Sequence record: PV730300.1
Source of the DNA: a phage
Length of the DNA: 64,000 bases
Reading direction: 5' to 3' (one strand)
Position 1 is the stretch's first letter. Each line of letters opens with the position of its first letter. The notes beneath the pieces were generated by a model. The model was not told where the DNA came from, searched no databases, and saw only the letters and a list, made by a program, of their open reading frames with translations. A program made the position numbers and the translations under genes. Positions 2,627 through 58,102 of this stretch are shown one piece after another.

Positions 2627-2863
2627 ATGAAAGAAGTCATGATCCTCAAAAAATCACCTATTTTACGTGGTGGCTTTATCGCTTACTCCGATGATCTGTT
2701 AATTGCAACGGTTGCAAAAATACTAAAATCAGAAGAGGATAGTAAAAACGGCGTTTATCGTATCTGTTTCACCCGTGGGAAGTTGCAAGGTAAGATCGCT
2801 TATGCTTTTGATTTACAAGATGTAAACGATAAAATATGCGCTGTTATTGATTATGCGAAATAG
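2627..2863 (+). CDS. hypothetical protein (78 aa)
   Basis: ORF track; isolated ORF inside otherwise non-coding region. Confidence 0.35.
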   Translation: MKEVMILKKSPILRGGFIAYSDDLLIATVAKILKSEEDSKNGVYRICFTRGKLQGKIAYAFDLQDVNDKICAVIDYAK

Positions 2864-2927
2864 TTAATTTTCTTATTGACACCGGATCTACTCAATATAT
2901 GAAGCGTTATAATTGACAACAAAACAA

Positions 2928-2955
2928 GGGGGCGCACAAAGCGCCCTTTCTTTTT
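2928..2955 (+). terminator. rho-independent terminator (second copy of GGGGCGCACAAAGCGCCC hairpin)
   Basis: Near-identical hairpin to 2171-2194 followed by T-rich tract. Confidence 0.5.
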
Positions 2956-4537
2956 GCCCGAAAAATGTTGATAGCTTTCGCCTATGAAAAACCGACACAG
3001 AGCAAAACTGAATAAATCACGGTATCAAGCTAATCAACCATCAAATGAATAACCATACACCCCAGGGCAAAAGGCCGTCAGAGAGCTATTTATAGCGTTT
3101 AAAATCGATCAACAGCCAACAACAAACCATCAAAAACACCCTTTTACCTCCTTTCTAGTGCAATGATAACCATTATCATCTACCCATGATTATCTATGCA
3201 ATATAAGCGCATAGTTATAGTGTTGATAATAGTTCGCAACAACTAACCAACAAACAACATAAAACAATAAGCAAACTAATCATAATCAAAGGAATAATAG
3301 CAAGATGATTGATAACGGCAAACAATTAAACCGTGATGAATAGTAAGCAAAATAACGATAACACGACAAAACAACCAACTAACGAACAATAACAAACGAA
3401 ACCATTAAAATAATAACTATTGCCATAATAGTAACTGAATGAAATCATTACAAAACAAATCATTCCCAGGATCATCATTAGCACGCTATGCCGGACACAT
3501 AGCGAGCTAATAATAAGCCAACTACACCCCAACAATCATAACCATCGGTGATGGTTATTTCTTGTTACTGCGTAGCTTGCAATAATTGCAAGCGTAATGA
3601 CGCTTACACTTATTGCGCTGGCTTATTATTAGCATTATATGTAATTACCAAGATCATAACATTAGCGCAATAACAATAATCATTGTAATGGTTACAATAT
3701 GAAATCATTAGCAAGATGAATAATTGCACGTAGCAACATGAGCGAATAGCGACAGGTTGCATAGTGTGCACATAATAGAATAAAAGTCAATAATTTTGGG
3801 GGCGAAATGTTACCGCCAGGGGCGGGAATGTTGAGCACTAAGAAAAGAGATAAACCTTAATCATGGGGGGCGTAAATATCCGAGGATTGCCAACGGCGAT
3901 CCGGTAGGATGTTGAGCAAGTTCTCTTAAACGTAAATAAAATCAGAAAATTCTTGATTTATTTTAGTTTTTATGTTAATAAACGTTTAAATAATAATCAT
4001 TCTCATATAGATAATAGTCTGCTTGTCATGAGCGGGATCGGTTGACATTGTTCCGTCATATGATGAAGTTGCCAAACCATTGATAAATAAGTGTTTGTGT
4101 GATTTATAATCAAATGGCCCACCTTGTCGCTATGTTGGTATGAGCCTTGCATAAGTCATTGAATACAAATGATAATTATTCTCATTCGCATGATATTTGG
4201 GAATTGTCGCTGCGTGGACCTGACGGCCCGAAAATTCGCGTTAAGCACTTCTTACGTATGCGCCATGATTTTTGCCATATTATATTGATTCTATTAGATA
4301 TTCTTGCCATGATTGCCATGAAACAGGGTGTCCCGAAATAATCTCTCCCCGTAGATATTTTGGGTTACTTTTTATACAAGAGTAGGGTGTCAAAAATAAT
4401 CGGTATATATGGGATAATTGATAGGAATCCCCTATGATAATTCGATTGTAATTCCCTGAGATTGATCGTATGATGTTGGTAGATGTTAGTGATTGATGAT
4501 TGCCATGAAAGATGGCTAACGATGAGAGGAGATTATC

Positions 4538-16949: not shown

Positions 16950-17309
16950 TTAATAGATGGTAGATAGATGATCATAGTTTATCTACCTTCACTTACGTTT
17001 CATACCTCACTATCGTGAGTAACATGAAACATTATTATATAGAAATCTACTACTCGCTATCGCTCGTAAACATATGTTTAGGGTACCATATTTTTTTGAA
17101 AAAGTCAATGCTGATTCACCTATCAATTATCTGTTTAAGATAAGTCTTACCTATCAATCTAACTCTTAACTAGTATTGCACCTATAGTCAGACTATTCCT
17201 ATAGTTATTAACCCTCTTCTTCTATAGAATGTAATTAGATCCTTGACAAACTCACAAAACCTGTGTTACATTGTGTCTCACAGGTGAATAATACCAAACA
17301 GGAGGAAGA

Positions 17310-17525
17310 ATGAGTTCCAATTTTCTATACAAAGCAAAAGATTCACGAGATGGAGAGAACCATTGGTGGTTGATCACAGAAGATGGTGTTATCATCCTAC
17401 CGTGGGACGGAGAGACGAAAGTTCAAATACTAGAGAAAGTAAAAGGTGTTAGTTTTAATGTTAGTCATGACATAACAACTTTCAAAGCTTTTGCTATGAA
17501 TCCTAGTCTTGTTGCCGAATGGTAA
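17310..17525 (+). CDS. hypothetical protein
   Basis: ORF track; RBS AGGAGGAAG; promoter-like TTGACA at 17243. Confidence 0.5.
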   Translation: MSSNFLYKAKDSRDGENHWWLITEDGVIILPWDGETKVQILEKVKGVSFNVSHDITTFKAFAMNPSLVAEW

Positions 17526-17537
17526 TCCAGGAGAAAA

Positions 17538-17757
17538 TATGACTAAAATGTATGCAGCCGTTGATAAGCTGGATGGGTCTGATTCTGTTTTTATTTTGAA
17601 TAAAATGGGTGTCTTAGTTTATGCCCGAACTTCTCAAAATGTAGAACACCAAGTGGAAGCAGCACAAATTTTAGAGCAAATAACCCCTCCATACCTATAC
17701 TCAAATGTTGAGCGTTTTAACGATGCACTTGGTTTGACGTTAATAGCGGAATGGTAA
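17538..17757 (+). CDS. hypothetical protein (C-terminal AEW shared with 17310 ORF)
   Basis: Track ORF 17509..17757; ATG at 17538 after AGGAGAAAAT. Confidence 0.45.
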
Positions 17758-17957
17758 TAATGGCGAAAATGTTGGAAATTGATAATGTCGTAACAATCAC
17801 TACGTCCATACCTTGTCCTCCTATGCCTTGTCCCTATTGTGGTGGTGCAAGATATGTTATGGCGGATGTAGGTCAAATTTACGAGTGTAACCCGTGCAAA
17901 ACCACAGGTTATATCCAAATAGAATCAGAGGAGAAACACTATGAGCCAAAACGCTAA
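17751..17957 (+). CDS. hypothetical zinc-ribbon protein
   Basis: CPYCGG...CNPCK motif. Confidence 0.45.
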   Translation: MVIMAKMLEIDNVVTITTSIPCPPMPCPYCGGARYVMADVGQIYECNPCKTTGYIQIESEEKHYEPKR

Positions 17958-18390
17958 AGAAAAAGAAGTAATCACGGTAATCCGTCAGATGGAAGGTGCC
18001 GAAAACAATGCTTTTGTTACTAAGATTCTTCTTAACATCTTTGAAGATGTTATTTTAAACAATCCTGGTCATAAAGATTATCAGTATGATGTTATGATGG
18101 GTGCTTTGCTTGAAATTAACAAAAACACTTTTGCTGAATATGAGCAACACATGCTTTTACCAGAGGAAGATCAGGATTATTTGTTATCTGGTGCTTTAAG
18201 TGCACAAGAAAATTTCTACCACGTTCTTAATATGGCTTATGCAGATGAACTTGCTGTTTCCCTTGAAGAGCGGATTCAAATGGTTCGTGACGTAATGAAT
18301 GAACAAATCCAAGAAGTTGAAGATCTGGTAGCAGAGCCTTTAGCAGAAATTCGTGCAGCTATTGAAAAACAAAAAGGAACTCAATCATGA
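17941..18390 (+). CDS. hypothetical protein (149 aa)
   Basis: ORF track. Confidence 0.5.
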   Translation: MSQNAKEKEVITVIRQMEGAENNAFVTKILLNIFEDVILNNPGHKDYQYDVMMGALLEINKNTFAEYEQHMLLPEEDQDYLLSGALSAQENFYHVLNMAYADELAVSLEERIQMVRDVMNEQIQEVEDLVAEPLAEIRAAIEKQKGTQS

Positions 18391-18554
18391 TGCAAGTAGG
18401 TGATGTTGTTTGTCTTAAAGGTGCAAACAAACAAATGACAGTAATAGAAAGTTATGGTGAATCTTGTAAAGTAACTTGGTTTGATGAAAACGGGGAGTTG
18501 CAACACGCTATATTCGATCAAAAAGCTTTGAGGAAGGTTGAAGAAAAAGAATGA
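18387..18554 (+). CDS. hypothetical small protein (55 aa)
   Basis: Own translation; overlaps stop of upstream gene; below track cutoff. Confidence 0.3.
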   Translation: MMQVGDVVCLKGANKQMTVIESYGESCKVTWFDENGELQHAIFDQKALRKVEEKE

Positions 18555-55474: not shown

Positions 55475-55723
55475 ATGTCTCTATTAGAAAAACACGTGTT
55501 TGAAGATGGTAACGGCAATGCAGTTTTTCTTTTCCATCCAGAAAAATACACATCTGAAAACAATGGTACAACTTCTATTGTAATCACTAAAGATGTTAAA
55601 GTTATTGATTTCTTGGCTCTGATGCGAGAGATGGATCTTGAAATTAATACTTTTAACGCAGAAGCTTTGGTTGTTGCTCTTCTGGAAAAGAAAGATAGTG
55701 AAGAAGTAGCAGAATATGCTTAA
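55475..55723 (+). CDS. hypothetical protein
   Basis: Track ORF 55409..55723; ATG at 55475 after AGGAGGAACA. Confidence 0.45.
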   Translation: MSLLEKHVFEDGNGNAVFLFHPEKYTSENNGTTSIVITKDVKVIDFLALMREMDLEINTFNAEALVVALLEKKDSEEVAEYA

Positions 55724-55730
55724 ATAACTA

Positions 55731-55759
55731 TTGACAAACGTATCCTTCATATGTTAGGA
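55731..55759 (+). promoter_or_regulatory. promoter (ACTATTGACAA box) upstream of tRNA cluster
   Basis: TTGACA-N17-TTAGGA; box ACTATTGACAA repeated at 56318 and 57288. Confidence 0.45.
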
Positions 55760-55969
55760 TACGTTCATCAAGTGTGGTAACAGGGTCGTTGACTTTTGTT
55801 AAGAGGGGCTTGCACTGCGGTAGTGTTAGAGACTACTTCTTCAGAGGTTAGCTACCAAAGAGGAAAAGGAATAGTCTCGGCTCAAGAACTTTTACGCTGA
55901 AAGTTGGGCTTGGTCTTAGAGAATGTAGCGGTTCTCTACAATCGTCAGCGTCTCTGTTACCACATTTAT

Positions 55970-56044
55970 GGCCCTGTAGCTCAATGGGAGAGCTGTCGGC
56001 TCATAACCGATAGGTAGCTGGATCGAAACCAGCCAGGGCCACCA
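55970..56044 (+). tRNA. tRNA-Met (anticodon CAT; could be lysidine-modified Ile2)
   Basis: Manual cloverleaf: 7-bp acceptor GGCCCTG/CAGGGCC, loop CTCATAA, encoded CCA. Confidence 0.65.
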
Positions 56045-56046
56045 AC

Positions 56047-56121
56047 GTCTTTATGGTGTAATGGATAGCACAGGAGTCTTCTAAACTCTTAGTCAAGGTT
56101 CGATTCCTTGTAAAGACACCA
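56047..56121 (+). tRNA. tRNA-Arg (anticodon TCT)
   Basis: Manual fold: loop CTTCTAA, T-arm CAAGG-TTCGATT-CCTTG, CCA end. Confidence 0.65.
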
Positions 56122-56317
56122 GAACATTTTAACATGAATTAGCTCAAGTGATTTGAACCCACTACTGATCATGGTGGCAGAGAATGAGGCAAGTATGTCA
56201 GACATTATAAACAAAGGCCACGGTTATATTAGAAGACATAAATGCTCGAAGAGCACCGTTCGTTGAGAACGGGGGTTGGTGGAGTCACCATTCATGGTAA
56301 AATGTTTTAAAAAACTA

Positions 56318-56346
56318 TTGACAACTAACATTATTTTATGTTAGAT
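56318..56346 (+). promoter_or_regulatory. promoter (ACTATTGACAA box) internal to tRNA cluster
   Basis: TTGACA-N17-TTAGAT immediately upstream of tRNA-Ser. Confidence 0.45.
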
Positions 56347-56355
56347 TATAAGTAT

Positions 56356-56446
56356 GGAAGGGCAAATCGACGTGGCGACGAAAACGGTCTTGAAAACCGC
56401 CGAGCTTGAAAGAGCCTTGGGAGTTCGACTCTCCCTCCTTCCGCCA
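56356..56446 (+). tRNA. tRNA-Ser (anticodon TGA), type II
   Basis: CGGTCTTGAAAACCG anticodon arm matches E. coli tRNA-Ser(UGA); long variable arm; G73; CCA. Confidence 0.6.
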
Positions 56447-56451
56447 GATTA

Positions 56452-56537
56452 GGTAGATTGGTGAAATGGTAGCCACGACAGTTTGCTAAACTGTAGTCGG
56501 AAACGGCGTGTAGGTTCGAGTCCTACATCTACCGCCA
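56452..56537 (+). tRNA. tRNA-Ser (anticodon GCT), type II
   Basis: Acceptor GGTAGAT/ATCTACC, loop TTGCTAA, long variable arm, G73, CCA. Confidence 0.6.
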
Positions 56538-56667
56538 AGTTCTTTTTAATATAGCTTACTTTAATAGAGTAAACTTTCGGCAGATGGCCCCCACCATCTT
56601 ACCGATAACTCATAGTTAGTGGTGTGAACACTGGCTATTTTAAAAAGAATTTAAATATTAGTATTTA

Positions 56668-56755
56668 GGTGAGTTAATTCCGTAGGGGTAGCGGGGCAGA
56701 CTGTAAATCTGTTATCATTGCGATTCGGGTGGTTCGACTCCATCACTCACCACCA
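56668..56755 (+). tRNA. tRNA-Tyr (anticodon GTA), type II
   Basis: GCAGACTGTAAATCTG anticodon arm as in E. coli tRNA-Tyr; A73; CCA; D-arm atypical. Confidence 0.55.
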
Positions 56756-56761
56756 AATTAA

Positions 56762-56847
56762 GATGAGTTGGCTGAATGGTTTAAGCGGCGGACTGTTAAT
56801 CCGTGTTCGAAAGAACGATATAGGTTCAAATCCTATACTCATCGCCA
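56762..56847 (+). tRNA. type-II tRNA (long variable arm, G73) with GTT anticodon (Asn codons); identity uncertain
   Basis: Perfect 7-bp acceptor, loop CTGTTAA, variable arm GTTC-GAAA-GAAC, T-arm ATAGG-TTCAAAT-CCTAT, CCA. Confidence 0.55.
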
Positions 56848-56852
56848 GAATT

Positions 56853-56932
56853 ATGGACTTGTAGAGTTAAGGTAAACCCCCAGTCGCCAAGAGGCTTCTG
56901 AAATTGCAGGTATCGAATCCTGCCGAGTCCCA
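56853..56932 (+). ncRNA. tRNA-like element, isotype unresolved (possible degenerate tRNA)
   Basis: Acceptor-like GGACTTG/CGAGTCC and T-arm-like GCAGG-TATCGAAT-CCTGC but no canonical anticodon arm found. Confidence 0.25.
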
Positions 56933-56937
56933 GCTTT

Positions 56938-57012
56938 GCTCCTATAGTATAATGGCTATTACAACGGTTTTGTAATCCGTGGATCTCTGTTCGATTCAGA
57001 GTGGGAGCACCA
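56938..57012 (+). tRNA. tRNA-Thr (anticodon TGT)
   Basis: Acceptor GCTCCTA/TGGGAGC, loop TTTGTAA, T-arm CTCTG-TTCGATT-CAGAG, CCA. Confidence 0.6.
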
Positions 57013-57287
57013 ACACAACATTAAGAGCACTGTGATTGATCGTCGTATCCTGTGCACAAGGTCTGTTCGAAAGACAGTGTTCTTAGTATTGTGTTGATCA
57101 CACAAAAAGAGTTACCTGAAACTTGACCGGAGTAGGGTTGGATGGGGCAAAAGAAGAAGCGGCTCTCCCATCGACAGCAACGAAGAATAATATTTGACTT
57201 TGGTTTTGTATTATTTTAAGTTAGCTTACCGAACGTAGGGCTAGTCACCCAATGGGATACTCGTCACTGTCCCACTCAATAAAACTA

Positions 57288-57317
57288 TTGACAACCAATA
57301 GTAAAATGTAGTATAGT
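57288..57317 (+). promoter_or_regulatory. promoter (ACTATTGACAA box) internal to tRNA cluster
   Basis: TTGACA-N18-TATAGT upstream of tRNA-Gly. Confidence 0.45.
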
Positions 57318-57328
57318 AAAGATGTAGG

Positions 57329-57402
57329 GCGTTCTTGGTGTAGCGGTAGCATTCCGTCCTTCCAAGTCGGCGGCACGAGTTCGATCCTCGTAGAACGCTC
57401 CA
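57329..57402 (+). tRNA. tRNA-Gly (anticodon TCC)
   Basis: Loop CTTCCAA as in E. coli tRNA-Gly(UCC); T-arm ACGAG-TTCGATC-CTCGT; CCA. Confidence 0.6.
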
Positions 57403-57499
57403 AATTATTTAATAAAGGGTTGCCAGAAAACTTTCTCTTTTACTCATGGTTTTCTCCTTCTCTCACACCTCTTCTGGTTGCCCTTCATTAAATGATTTA

Positions 57500-57575
57500 T
57501 TGGTTTGTAGTGTAGTCCGGTAGCACACGACACTTTGACTGTCGTAGGTTTGGTTCAAATCCAGACAGACCAGCC
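57500..57575 (+). tRNA. tRNA-Gln (anticodon TTG)
   Basis: Anticodon arm CGACA-CTTTGAC-TGTCG; T-loop TTCAAAT; CCA. Confidence 0.6.
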
Positions 57576-57580
57576 ATATA

Positions 57581-57657
57581 ACGGAATTTAGCTCAGTTTG
57601 GTAGAGCATACGCTTTGGGAGCGTAGGGTCGCAGGTTCGAATCCTGCAATTCCGACC
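57581..57657 (+). tRNA. tRNA-Pro (anticodon TGG)
   Basis: Acceptor CGGAATT/AATTCCG; arm TACGC-TTTGGGA-GCGTA; T-loop TTCGAAT; CCA. Confidence 0.65.
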
Positions 57658-57663
57658 AATTTA

Positions 57664-57737
57664 ATGTTTCGTAGTTCAATGGTAGAACCCACGACTGATA
57701 ATCGTGAGACACAAGTTCGATTCTTGTCGAAACAACC
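57664..57737 (+). tRNA. tRNA-Ile (anticodon GAT)
   Basis: Acceptor TGTTTCG/CGAAACA; arm CACGA-CTGATAA-TCGTG; T-loop TTCGATT; CCA. Confidence 0.65.
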
Positions 57738-57741
57738 AGTT

Positions 57742-57811
57742 TCCCGTTAGACTTACAGGATAAGAGTTCCACAGCTTATTGTGATGCTGGTTCGAATCCA
57801 GCACGGGATAC
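57742..57811 (+). ncRNA. tRNA-like element, isotype unresolved
   Basis: T-arm GCTGG-TTCGAAT-CCAGC and acceptor-like TTCCCGT/ACGGGAT but anticodon arm not resolvable by eye; no CCA. Confidence 0.3.
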
Positions 57812-57816
57812 CTAAT

Positions 57817-57895
57817 AGCGGGATAGAGGAGTCTGGTCGTCCTCGCCAGTTTCATATGCTGGAGATCATCGGTTCGAATCCGATTCCCGCCTCCA
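57817..57895 (+). tRNA. tRNA-Met-like (anticodon CAT) with A1-C72 mismatch
   Basis: Arm CCAGT-TTCATAT-GCTGG, T-arm ATCGG-TTCGAAT-CCGAT, CCA; first acceptor pair unpaired. Confidence 0.5.
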
Positions 57896-58012
57896 AATAT
57901 CGCTTGCCAGCGGTATCTTTGAAGACCTTGCCTGGTTCCTTCTAAGATGGAGGGGTGCGACTCCTTAACGCACAATTATAATAAAGCATTTCAACTTAAC
58001 AGTATTTATTAG

Positions 58013-58038
58013 CCTCCTTATTGGAGGCTTTTTGCTAC
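58013..58038 (+). terminator. rho-independent terminator after tRNA cluster (AGCCTCC-TTATT-GGAGGCT + TTTTT)
   Basis: Seen directly. Confidence 0.6.
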
Positions 58039-58102
58039 CTATTGAATAAAACTTGACTTATTATTTTTTATATGTTAAGATAAAGTTTAGGAGGATTTTA
58101 TT

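Follow-up and report, generated by a model that had tools for sequence, protein, structure and literature searches.

Two tRNA-shaped elements without an anticodon loop in the tRNA operon of a Phapecoctavirus

The transfer RNA (tRNA) operon of a phAPEC8-like Escherichia coli myophage (Phapecoctavirus, Stephanstirmvirinae) encodes two elements, A (56855–56930) and B (57741–57810), both on the + strand, that have the shape of a tRNA and lack an anticodon loop. They lie in a stretch of 64,000 nucleotides (nt) of sequence record PV730300.1, which we call the window and whose positions are used throughout. We consider, with a probability of about 0.6, that A and B derive from tRNA genes, that they have lost the anticodon loop, and that the acceptor/T-arm shape of a tRNA is still under selection in them. 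Most likely they are non-decoding RNAs that are excised along with the tRNAs. They are best filed among the tRNA-like RNAs of phage tRNA operons, a known and unexplained kind, as real, unannotated elements that are not ordinary tRNAs. Our literature searches found no description of them, and in about 90 GenBank records the corresponding stretch is featureless or, occasionally, carries a spurious “hypothetical protein.”

Structure and detection of elements A and B

Element A has an acceptor stem of 7 bp (56855–61/56924–30), a degenerate D region, and a T stem of 5 bp (56906–10/56919–23) with a T loop of 8 nt (UAUCGAAU). Its central hairpin (56880–56901) is 22 nt long and built in two steps, with the stem 56880–83/56898–901 around GCC-AAGA-GGC. 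The 3′ end reads GAGUCC-CAG and does not encode CCA. Element B has an acceptor stem of 6 bp plus a U1×U72 mismatch (57741–47/57803–09), a D region that reads UAGACUUACAGGAUAAGAG, and a canonical T arm (GCUGG-UUCGAAU-CCAGC, 57786–57802). A 5-bp stem with the tetraloop CUUA (CACAG-CUUA-UUGUG, 57770–83) stands in place of the anticodon arm, and the 3′ end (ACGGGAU-ACCU) consists of A73 followed by CCU, again with no CCA encoded. A and B are the sole elements of the cluster without an encoded CCA, which is present in all 12 true tRNAs. In E. coli, CCA is encoded in every tRNA gene.

With the canonical tRNA (RF00005), both elements share the acceptor stem, the D-region sequence (UAG..GG..A), and the T arm; B also has the UUCGAAU T loop and a G18G19-like GG. 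Measured against an acceptor stem of 7 bp and a T arm of 5 bp with a 7-nt loop, A has the full acceptor stem and a T loop of 8 nt, and B has 6 bp with the 1:72 mismatch and a canonical T arm. They differ from it by the missing CCA, by scores under the cut-off, and by the anticodon arm: a 5-bp stem with a 7-nt loop (U33, anticodon, purine 37) is absent from A, which has the 22-nt hairpin, and from B, which has the 4-nt loop CUUA.

Neither element was called by ARAGORN, nor by Rfam at the gathering score or at E ≤ 10 over 2.5 kb. When the elements were searched alone with lax filters, the tRNA model reached 19.2 bits (A) and 24.6 bits (B), short of the gathering score of 29; it aligned to the acceptor, D, and T regions and passed over the anticodon arm as a local gap. 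Other Rfam families (transfer-messenger RNA [tmRNA], YrlA, mascRNA, and tRNA-Sec) gave no match at A or B, even at E ≤ 10. The z-scores of the minimum free energy were −2.9 for A and −2.8 for B, and they ranged from −2.6 to −3.9 for A, B, and their homologues, all of which folded with an acceptor stem, a central hairpin, and a T arm.

A sequence-only reading of this region had described two segments with acceptor-like and T-arm-like stems and no canonical anticodon arm. Folding and the alignment to the tRNA model bear this out, with the coordinates correct to 1–3 nt, and neither ARAGORN nor the Infernal/Rfam scans, which it had proposed as a check, resolve A or B as an ordinary tRNA. An intron-containing or permuted tRNA was considered for A and rejected because, by inspection, its sequence does not allow a 7-nt loop flanked by 5-bp pairing. 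A role at the DNA level was rejected for both elements because their G·U pairs make the helices specific to the + strand RNA.

Conservation and covariation

A megablast search with 55800–58100 found about 70 full-length Phapecoctavirus genomes with 95–99% identity. Both elements were present in nine of nine Phapecoctavirus loci, including genomes in which the Asn, Tyr, or Pro gene is missing or replaced.

We found two alleles of A. The allele of the window occurs in Phapecoctavirus, and one with 66% identity to it occurs in Justusliebigvirus (phi92-like), where it is 100% identical across about 35 genomes. Four pairs have changed on both sides between the alleles: 2:71 (G-C to U-A), 3:70 (A-U to G-C), one pair of the T stem, and one of the central stem, which in the second allele belongs to the arm UCUAGA-AUUU-UCUAGA. 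In addition, U6·G67 is replaced by U-A, and the only pair lost is the terminal one, 1:72. Overall, 98% of the cells were paired, compared with 15–55% when the partners were slid. The identity of A between the two genera (65%) falls within the 62–76% of seven of the nine flanking true tRNAs compared; the other two, SerGCT and the CAT tRNA, are about 97% identical. In phage arall, an A of the Phapecoctavirus type (96%) is flanked by Asn and Thr genes that are 100% of the Justusliebigvirus type, so A appears to have been exchanged as a discrete cassette.

Homologues of B were detected in a subset of the Vequintavirinae (A7_1, LTH01, and UPEC06) and in the siphophage phiEB49, each 2–3 nt behind a true tRNA; B thus occurs in three unrelated coliphage groups. 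The D region (UUAGRCUUAYAGGAUAAGA) and the T arm are nearly invariant across the homologues. Between the Phapecoctavirus and Vequintavirinae copies, four pairs have changed on both sides and no change breaks a stem; compensatory changes in the acceptor and T stems are seen at 3:70 (C-G to U-A), 2:71 (U-A to G-C), and 49:65 (G-C to A-U). Paired cells amounted to 95%, compared with about 40% with the partners slid. The central stem is kept and its cap is variable: CUUA, UUUA, or CUA in Phapecoctavirus, UAU or UCU on a 7-bp stem in the Vequintavirinae, and the 7-nt UUAACAA in phiEB49. The next matches of the B covariance model were the adjacent tRNA-Arg(CCU) of phiEB49 (42.8 bits) and then Lys(UUU) tRNAs. 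Aligned with these nearest true tRNAs, the D arm of B proves ordinary (loop ACAGGAUA) apart from its weakened stem. B is thus taken to be a tRNA derivative, since it has an ordinary D arm and the nearest matches of its model are true tRNAs.

Within the genus, the polymorphisms of the sampled loci lie in loops, linkers, or tails, or exchange one standard pair for another (G·U/A-U in B, C-G/U·G in A). The sole change that breaks a pair is the window's own G-to-A at 56901, in the central stem of A. A neutral pseudogene would have stems and loops hit equally and no compensation, and this is not the pattern observed: there are four plus four double-sided pair changes, 95–98% of cells are paired, and between lineages only the terminal pair is broken. 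The two segments had been proposed to be degenerate tRNAs or other small RNAs. Our results agree with this as far as the elements are tRNA-derived and non-decoding, and they speak against simple degeneration, given the compensatory changes in the helices, a divergence of A like that of true tRNAs, and the retention of both elements in nine of nine loci.

A search of IMG/VR, metagenomes, and GTDB genomes for the B pattern, which combines the conserved D region with the T arm, yielded Phapecoctavirus-like contigs and phiEB49 alone, with no bacterial counterpart. With the A pattern, IMG/VR yielded the two known alleles and, beyond them, a single chance match inside a coding or tmRNA-bearing contig. 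The covariance models revealed no further copies of A or B in the 64-kb window or in the Sichuanvirus and Justusliebigvirus loci.

Comparison with known tRNA-like RNAs

The closest analogue of A and B would be RNA C of phage T4 (species 1 RNA, rnaC), which has been unexplained for some 50 years, and on structural grounds we would regard them as the same kind of object. RNA C and RNA D are encoded, like A and B, inside a phage tRNA operon and adjoin true tRNAs. In our folding, an 8-bp acceptor-like stem (ACGGAACG/CGUUUCGU) of rnaC stacks on its T arm, which is canonical (CCGGG-UUCGAAU-CCCGG), and there is no anticodon arm. A and B have the same architecture, with a location in a tRNA operon, an acceptor-like closing stem, a T arm, and no anticodon arm. 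They differ in size and build: rnaC, at 139 nt, includes a 5′ extension of 44 nt and a large interior, and A and B are cloverleaf derivatives of tRNA size. No sequence similarity of rnaC or rnaD to A and B was noted, in a direct comparison confined to length and interior. The only Rfam match of rnaC is tRNA-Sec-like (17.5 bits), and no Rfam family exists for rnaC or rnaD. The function of both T4 RNAs is still unknown (PMC3014915).

Compared with other acceptor/T-arm mimics, A and B are tRNA-sized molecules whose two ends pair in an ordinary acceptor stem of 7 bp, and in this they are unlike tmRNA, YrlA, mascRNA, and the plant-virus structures. The tRNA-like domain of tmRNA, YrlA/Y RNA-like RNAs, mascRNA, and the 3′ tRNA-like structures of plant viruses mimic the acceptor and T arm without a decoding arm and are recognized by tRNA-processing enzymes.

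Interpretation of elements A and B

The unit recognized by RNase P is the stacked 7 + 5-bp (12-bp) acceptor/T-arm helix and the T loop. A and B would be part of polycistronic tRNA precursors, whose transcription would start from the promoter at 56318 for A and from that at 57288 for B, and from these they would be excised like tRNAs. Because both elements have the stacked helix and the T loop, RNase P is expected to cut at their 5′ ends, and the 3′ ends would be trimmed by exonucleases. The products would be stable, L-shaped, non-decoding RNAs of about 70–76 nt. As the middle arm is sealed by a loop of 3–6 nt and no CCA is encoded, they should be unable to read codons and are unlikely to accept amino acids.

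Several observations weigh against continued selection on the tRNA shape. The sister genera manage without the full set: neither element is detectable in Sichuanvirus with the covariance models, and at the position of A there is only a weak cloverleaf-like sequence (z −0.4). Justusliebigvirus lacks B; the corresponding position there lies between tRNA-Phe and tRNA-Leu and is taken up by a structured spacer that is unrelated. The sequence depth is shallow, with two alleles of A and three clades of B; the compensatory changes therefore go back to a small number of independent events, and because the sequences are related, their significance is overstated by the shuffle control. One variant of B and the second allele of A have lost G18, the T loop of A has 8 nt, and B varies three to four times more than the neighbouring tRNAs within the genus; as judged from these sequences, the constraint on A and B is looser than in true tRNAs. 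Their stability, processing, and 3′ ends are those predicted from sequence. Debris of tRNAs is present in other spacers, which suggests that tRNA decay is ongoing in the cluster: 57062–79 resembles a Thr T arm, and 56155–56176 appears to be a tRNA remnant because it is 86% identical to the anticodon arm of tRNA-Ile(GAU).

Such debris would also be expected if A and B were dead tRNA genes drifting to deletion, with an apparent conservation that comes from close kinship and from GC-rich helices that happen to survive. We consider this improbable, even though the modules of the cluster are freely gained and lost, Sichuanvirus has no B and only the weak trace of A, no CCA is encoded, the loops and the elbow of both elements are relaxed, and some annotators already label neighbouring genes “pseudo.” Eight base pairs have changed on both sides with pairing intact, and no internal substitution between lineages breaks a stem. 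Moreover, most of the true tRNAs compared diverge at least as fast as A, both elements are kept in nine of nine loci while real tRNAs disappear, and the anticodon-less state of B is common to two phage subfamilies and was followed by compensatory change. It is possible, at somewhat better odds, that the fold is kept in cis only and has no function in trans, either as punctuation for RNase P and other processing or to spare the maturation of the flanking tRNAs; A and B may then be relics under weak cis constraint. The constraint is limited to the helices, the elements always lie 2–7 nt from true tRNAs, and long spacer hairpins also start exactly at the CCA ends of tRNAs, which suggests that the whole cluster is shaped by processing needs. 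This explanation does not account for the acquisition of B by three unrelated phage groups, and other tRNAs of the cluster abut at 2–6 nt with no need of punctuation. Finally, it is very improbable that A or B decodes by means of an unorthodox anticodon loop, as a frameshift or suppressor tRNA would. The copy of B in phiEB49 does have a 7-nt loop (UUAACAA) and an encoded CCA and is called tRNA-Val(AAC) by ARAGORN, but in the window B has a loop of 4 nt and A an extended hairpin, close relatives differ in the length and sequence of the loop, the U33/purine-37 context and the CCA are missing, and both elements score below the tRNA threshold.

If, as we prefer, A and B are non-decoding RNAs whose shape is under selection, one tentative role, about as likely as a fold kept in cis only, is that of a tRNA mimic acting in trans, which would occupy a host or phage protein that reads the acceptor and elbow and not the anticodon. 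Points for such a role are that B spreads horizontally, the central hairpins diverge, and A is exchanged as a cassette. It would also fit the RNA ligase and metallophosphatase genes annotated nearby and the view that phage tRNAs serve in counter-defence, having been proposed to evade tRNA nucleases (PMC10264068). In a bolder and rather unlikely version, A and B would belong to an undescribed class of anticodon-less phage tRNA mimics, spread horizontally among Stephanstirmvirinae, Vequintavirinae, and Drexlerviridae, that act in trans as decoys or inhibitors of host proteins recognizing the acceptor and elbow. Their targets could be, for example, defence toxins that modify tRNA ends, processing enzymes, or modification enzymes. 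As decoys, A and B would complement the nuclease-resistant tRNAs and RNA-repair genes of the phage, and their function would be distantly related to that of T4 RNA C.

The host tRNA pool is now seen as contested, with phage tRNA genes among the weapons; to this conflict, tRNA-shaped RNAs that do not decode and are selected for their structure would contribute a second kind of player. With A and B, a relative of T4 RNA C would also become tractable. As for annotation, these elements are unannotated or lie under spurious open reading frames in about 130 deposited coliphage genomes.

The second CAT tRNA

The gene at 57817–57895 (+ strand) codes for an apparently initiator-derived tRNA-Met(CAU) variant with A1×C72, U73, A11:U24, and an encoded CCA; it was found by ARAGORN and by the Rfam tRNA model (50 bits). 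The unpaired first acceptor position noticed earlier is also seen in the drawing of ARAGORN, where A1 stands unpaired opposite C72. Of the three E. coli tRNAs compared with this CAT tRNA, the initiator metZ is the most similar (69.6% identity), ahead of the elongator metT (51.9%) and ileX (45.6%); with the anticodon arm left out, the values are 74%, 55%, and 47%. The acceptor is AGCGGGA/UCCCGCC and the D stem is GAGG/CCUC. The features shared with initiators are the CAU anticodon, the lack of a Watson–Crick pair at 1:72, A11:U24, G2:C71, and C3:G70, together with a further hallmark, G4:C69. The E. coli initiators metZ/W/V and metY likewise have CAU, a non-Watson–Crick 1:72, and the D loop AGYCUGGU; the variable loop AGAUC is presumably the same as in metY.

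Other positions differ. The E. coli initiator has C×A at 1:72, A73, three G:C pairs, and the loop CUCAUAA, whereas the CAT tRNA of the window has A×C, U73, one G:C pair, and the loop UUCAUAU. The three consecutive G:C pairs at 29–31:39–41 are absent, as the stem CCAGU/GCUGG gives A29:U41, G30:C40, and U31·G39; the Sichuanvirus counterpart has the stem UAAGU/GCUUA, with compensatory changes. The A73 discriminator is also absent, with U73 in all Stephanstirmvirinae copies. The lack of the three G:C pairs and of A73 argues against efficient function as an initiator. At 1:72, A×C in the window corresponds to U×C in Justusliebigvirus and Sichuanvirus, so it is the mismatch and not the identity of the bases that is conserved.

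The sequence-only reading held that A1–C72 is not the bacterial initiator pattern and that the role of this tRNA is unclear. The first part is literally so, as the canonical pattern is C1×A72. The rest of the molecule is nevertheless initiator-like (metZ 69.6% vs. metT 51.9%, A11:U24, G2:C71, C3:G70) and the mismatch is conserved, so its role seems better constrained than “unclear,” although the three G:C pairs of initiators are lacking. Plausibly, this tRNA would be an initiator body that escapes VapC-like nucleases. The acceptor end would keep the features for formylation and for exclusion from EF-Tu, and the anticodon arm would have been remodelled to escape initiator-tRNA nucleases such as enteric VapC, which, in the account of Winther and Gerdes (2011) as it is cited in PMC10264068, cuts the initiator tRNA in the anticodon stem-loop. 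The question raised is whether the phage supplies an initiator or a formylatable Met-tRNA that escapes initiator-specific nucleases and passes IF3 proofreading without the three G:C pairs.

Related tRNA-Met genes of other phages have A11:U24 together with an anticodon stem of the form CCAGN and a 1:72 pair that is weak or absent: A1-U72 in Erwinia phage phiEa104, U1-A72 in Klebsiella phage Sugarland, and C1×C72 in Sinorhizobium phage NV1.1.1. The tRNA-Met of Vibrio phage nt-1 has the same D stem and anticodon stem, with an acceptor stem drawn irregularly by ARAGORN. Because these genes have the same combination of features, the CAT tRNA of the window is considered to belong to a lineage widespread among phages. 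The other CAT tRNA, the first in the cluster (55970), is ileX-like (73.7%) and has C4:G69 and C5:G68, which makes it an Ile2-type tRNA. In some relatives, a third CAU tRNA with an unusual D arm (GAAGCUGGCGUUUC) lies directly upstream of the initiator-like one (L005, 3816–3891; phi1_175008, L031, 2392–2467).

The spacer 57013–57328 and other structured spacers

The spacer of about 300 nt between tRNA-Thr and tRNA-Gly is a structured RNA that ends one transcription unit, followed by the promoter of the next. Several hairpins and an internal promoter-like box had been noticed in it, and both are supported by folding and by conservation in relatives. An inverted-repeat search and folding revealed a long hairpin on the + strand (57011–57096) that starts from the CCA of tRNA-Thr, with arms of 23 nt (57011–33/57074–96) and the T-arm-like remnant 57062–79 at its apex. 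Within the genus its conservation is 99%, and in Sichuanvirus the same place is also occupied by a hairpin. The non-coding part that follows (57101–57287, + strand) has blocks in common with Sichuanvirus, including a covarying stem (GGG/CCC to GAGA/UCUC). Folding of the whole spacer gave a z-score of −2.2. A coding explanation was rejected, as there is no open reading frame of at least 60 amino acids. In Justusliebigvirus, a 107-amino-acid open reading frame (VOG5717; locus 2786–3109) lies between tRNA-Thr and tRNA-Gly, with a sequence unrelated to the non-coding spacer of Phapecoctavirus.

The spacer ends with the internal sigma-70-type promoter P3 (57288–57317, + strand; TTGACA-18-TATAGT), which lies in the box AAAACTATTGACAAC, has 11 of 12 matches, and is kept in relatives. 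It is the best sigma-70-like site of the region. Phages related to rV5 are reported to use host-type sigma-70 promoters throughout (PMC3606486).

Other spacers are built alike, with long hairpins that start from a tRNA CCA at 56123, 56537, and 57403. Long inverted repeats, which begin at a tRNA CCA or beside it, close the spacers 56122–56317 and 56537–56652, and the leader 55770–55967 has arms of 35 nt. The spacer between tRNA-Gly and tRNA-Gln (S4; 57403–57500, + strand) is a strong candidate for a small RNA, with a predicted stem of about 23 bp, a CU-rich loop of about 38 nt, and a folding z-score of −5.7. Its loop (AGAAAACUUUCUCUUUUACUCAUGGUUUUCUCCUUC) is almost invariant in Phapecoctavirus, Sichuanvirus, and Justusliebigvirus, and the stem arms covary. 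Within the loop, UCUCCUU resembles an anti-Shine–Dalgarno sequence. At the position of S4, a hairpin whose loop is likewise CU-rich is present in a Vequintavirinae phage.

Organization of the tRNA cluster

The tRNA operon occupies a divergent junction between leftward genes of replication and nucleotide metabolism and rightward lysis, terminase, and structural genes. ARAGORN called 10 tRNAs, all on the + strand (55970–57895), and Rfam added Tyr(GUA) at 56668–56752 and a sub-threshold Ser(UGA)-like gene at 56356–56442. Both of these are non-canonical and probably real tRNAs that ARAGORN overlooked in the window. Ser(UGA) scored 37 bits with the tRNA-Sec model and is annotated as tRNA-Ser-TGA in ASO2A; Tyr(GUA) scored 39 bits with the tRNA model and is labelled “pseudo” in one GenBank record. 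The genes around A, B, and the spacer are ordinary according to ARAGORN and Rfam: tRNA-Thr(UGU) at 56938–57012, tRNA-Gly(UCC) at 57329–57402, which is the first gene past P3, and the closely packed tRNA-Gln(UUG), tRNA-Pro(UGG), and tRNA-Ile(GAU) at 57501–57738, all on the + strand.

Transcription units are delimited by promoters and a terminator (58011–58029). The three sigma-70-type promoters have the box of P3 in common, with first hexamers at 55731, 56318, and 57288; the further copies of the box are at 55720 and 56307.

As judged by comparison with relatives, the cluster is a mosaic of small structured modules. Many relatives have a structured insertion of about 88 nt between tRNA-Gln and tRNA-Pro (loci L002, 2277–2369; L015; L016), longer in phiWec188; the window is without it, at 57577–57581. 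ABPW7 and phiWec188 have about 110 additional nt behind element A, and ZCKP1 has an 800-bp insertion. In ASO2A, an RNA ligase (Rnl1-like) and a metallophosphatase are annotated as adjacent genes on the opposite strand, about 5 kb upstream of the cluster (17047–18532 of its locus); the pair recalls the Rnl1/Pnkp tRNA-repair system of T4. The Klebsiella phage phi1_175008 (Sichuanvirus) has at 290–380 of its locus a further element bearing a T arm, and at 2584–2655 a clean cloverleaf with an encoded CCA, a 9-nt “anticodon” loop (CCUCCAAAA), and a D arm of 6 bp and 3 nt, on which ARAGORN is silent.

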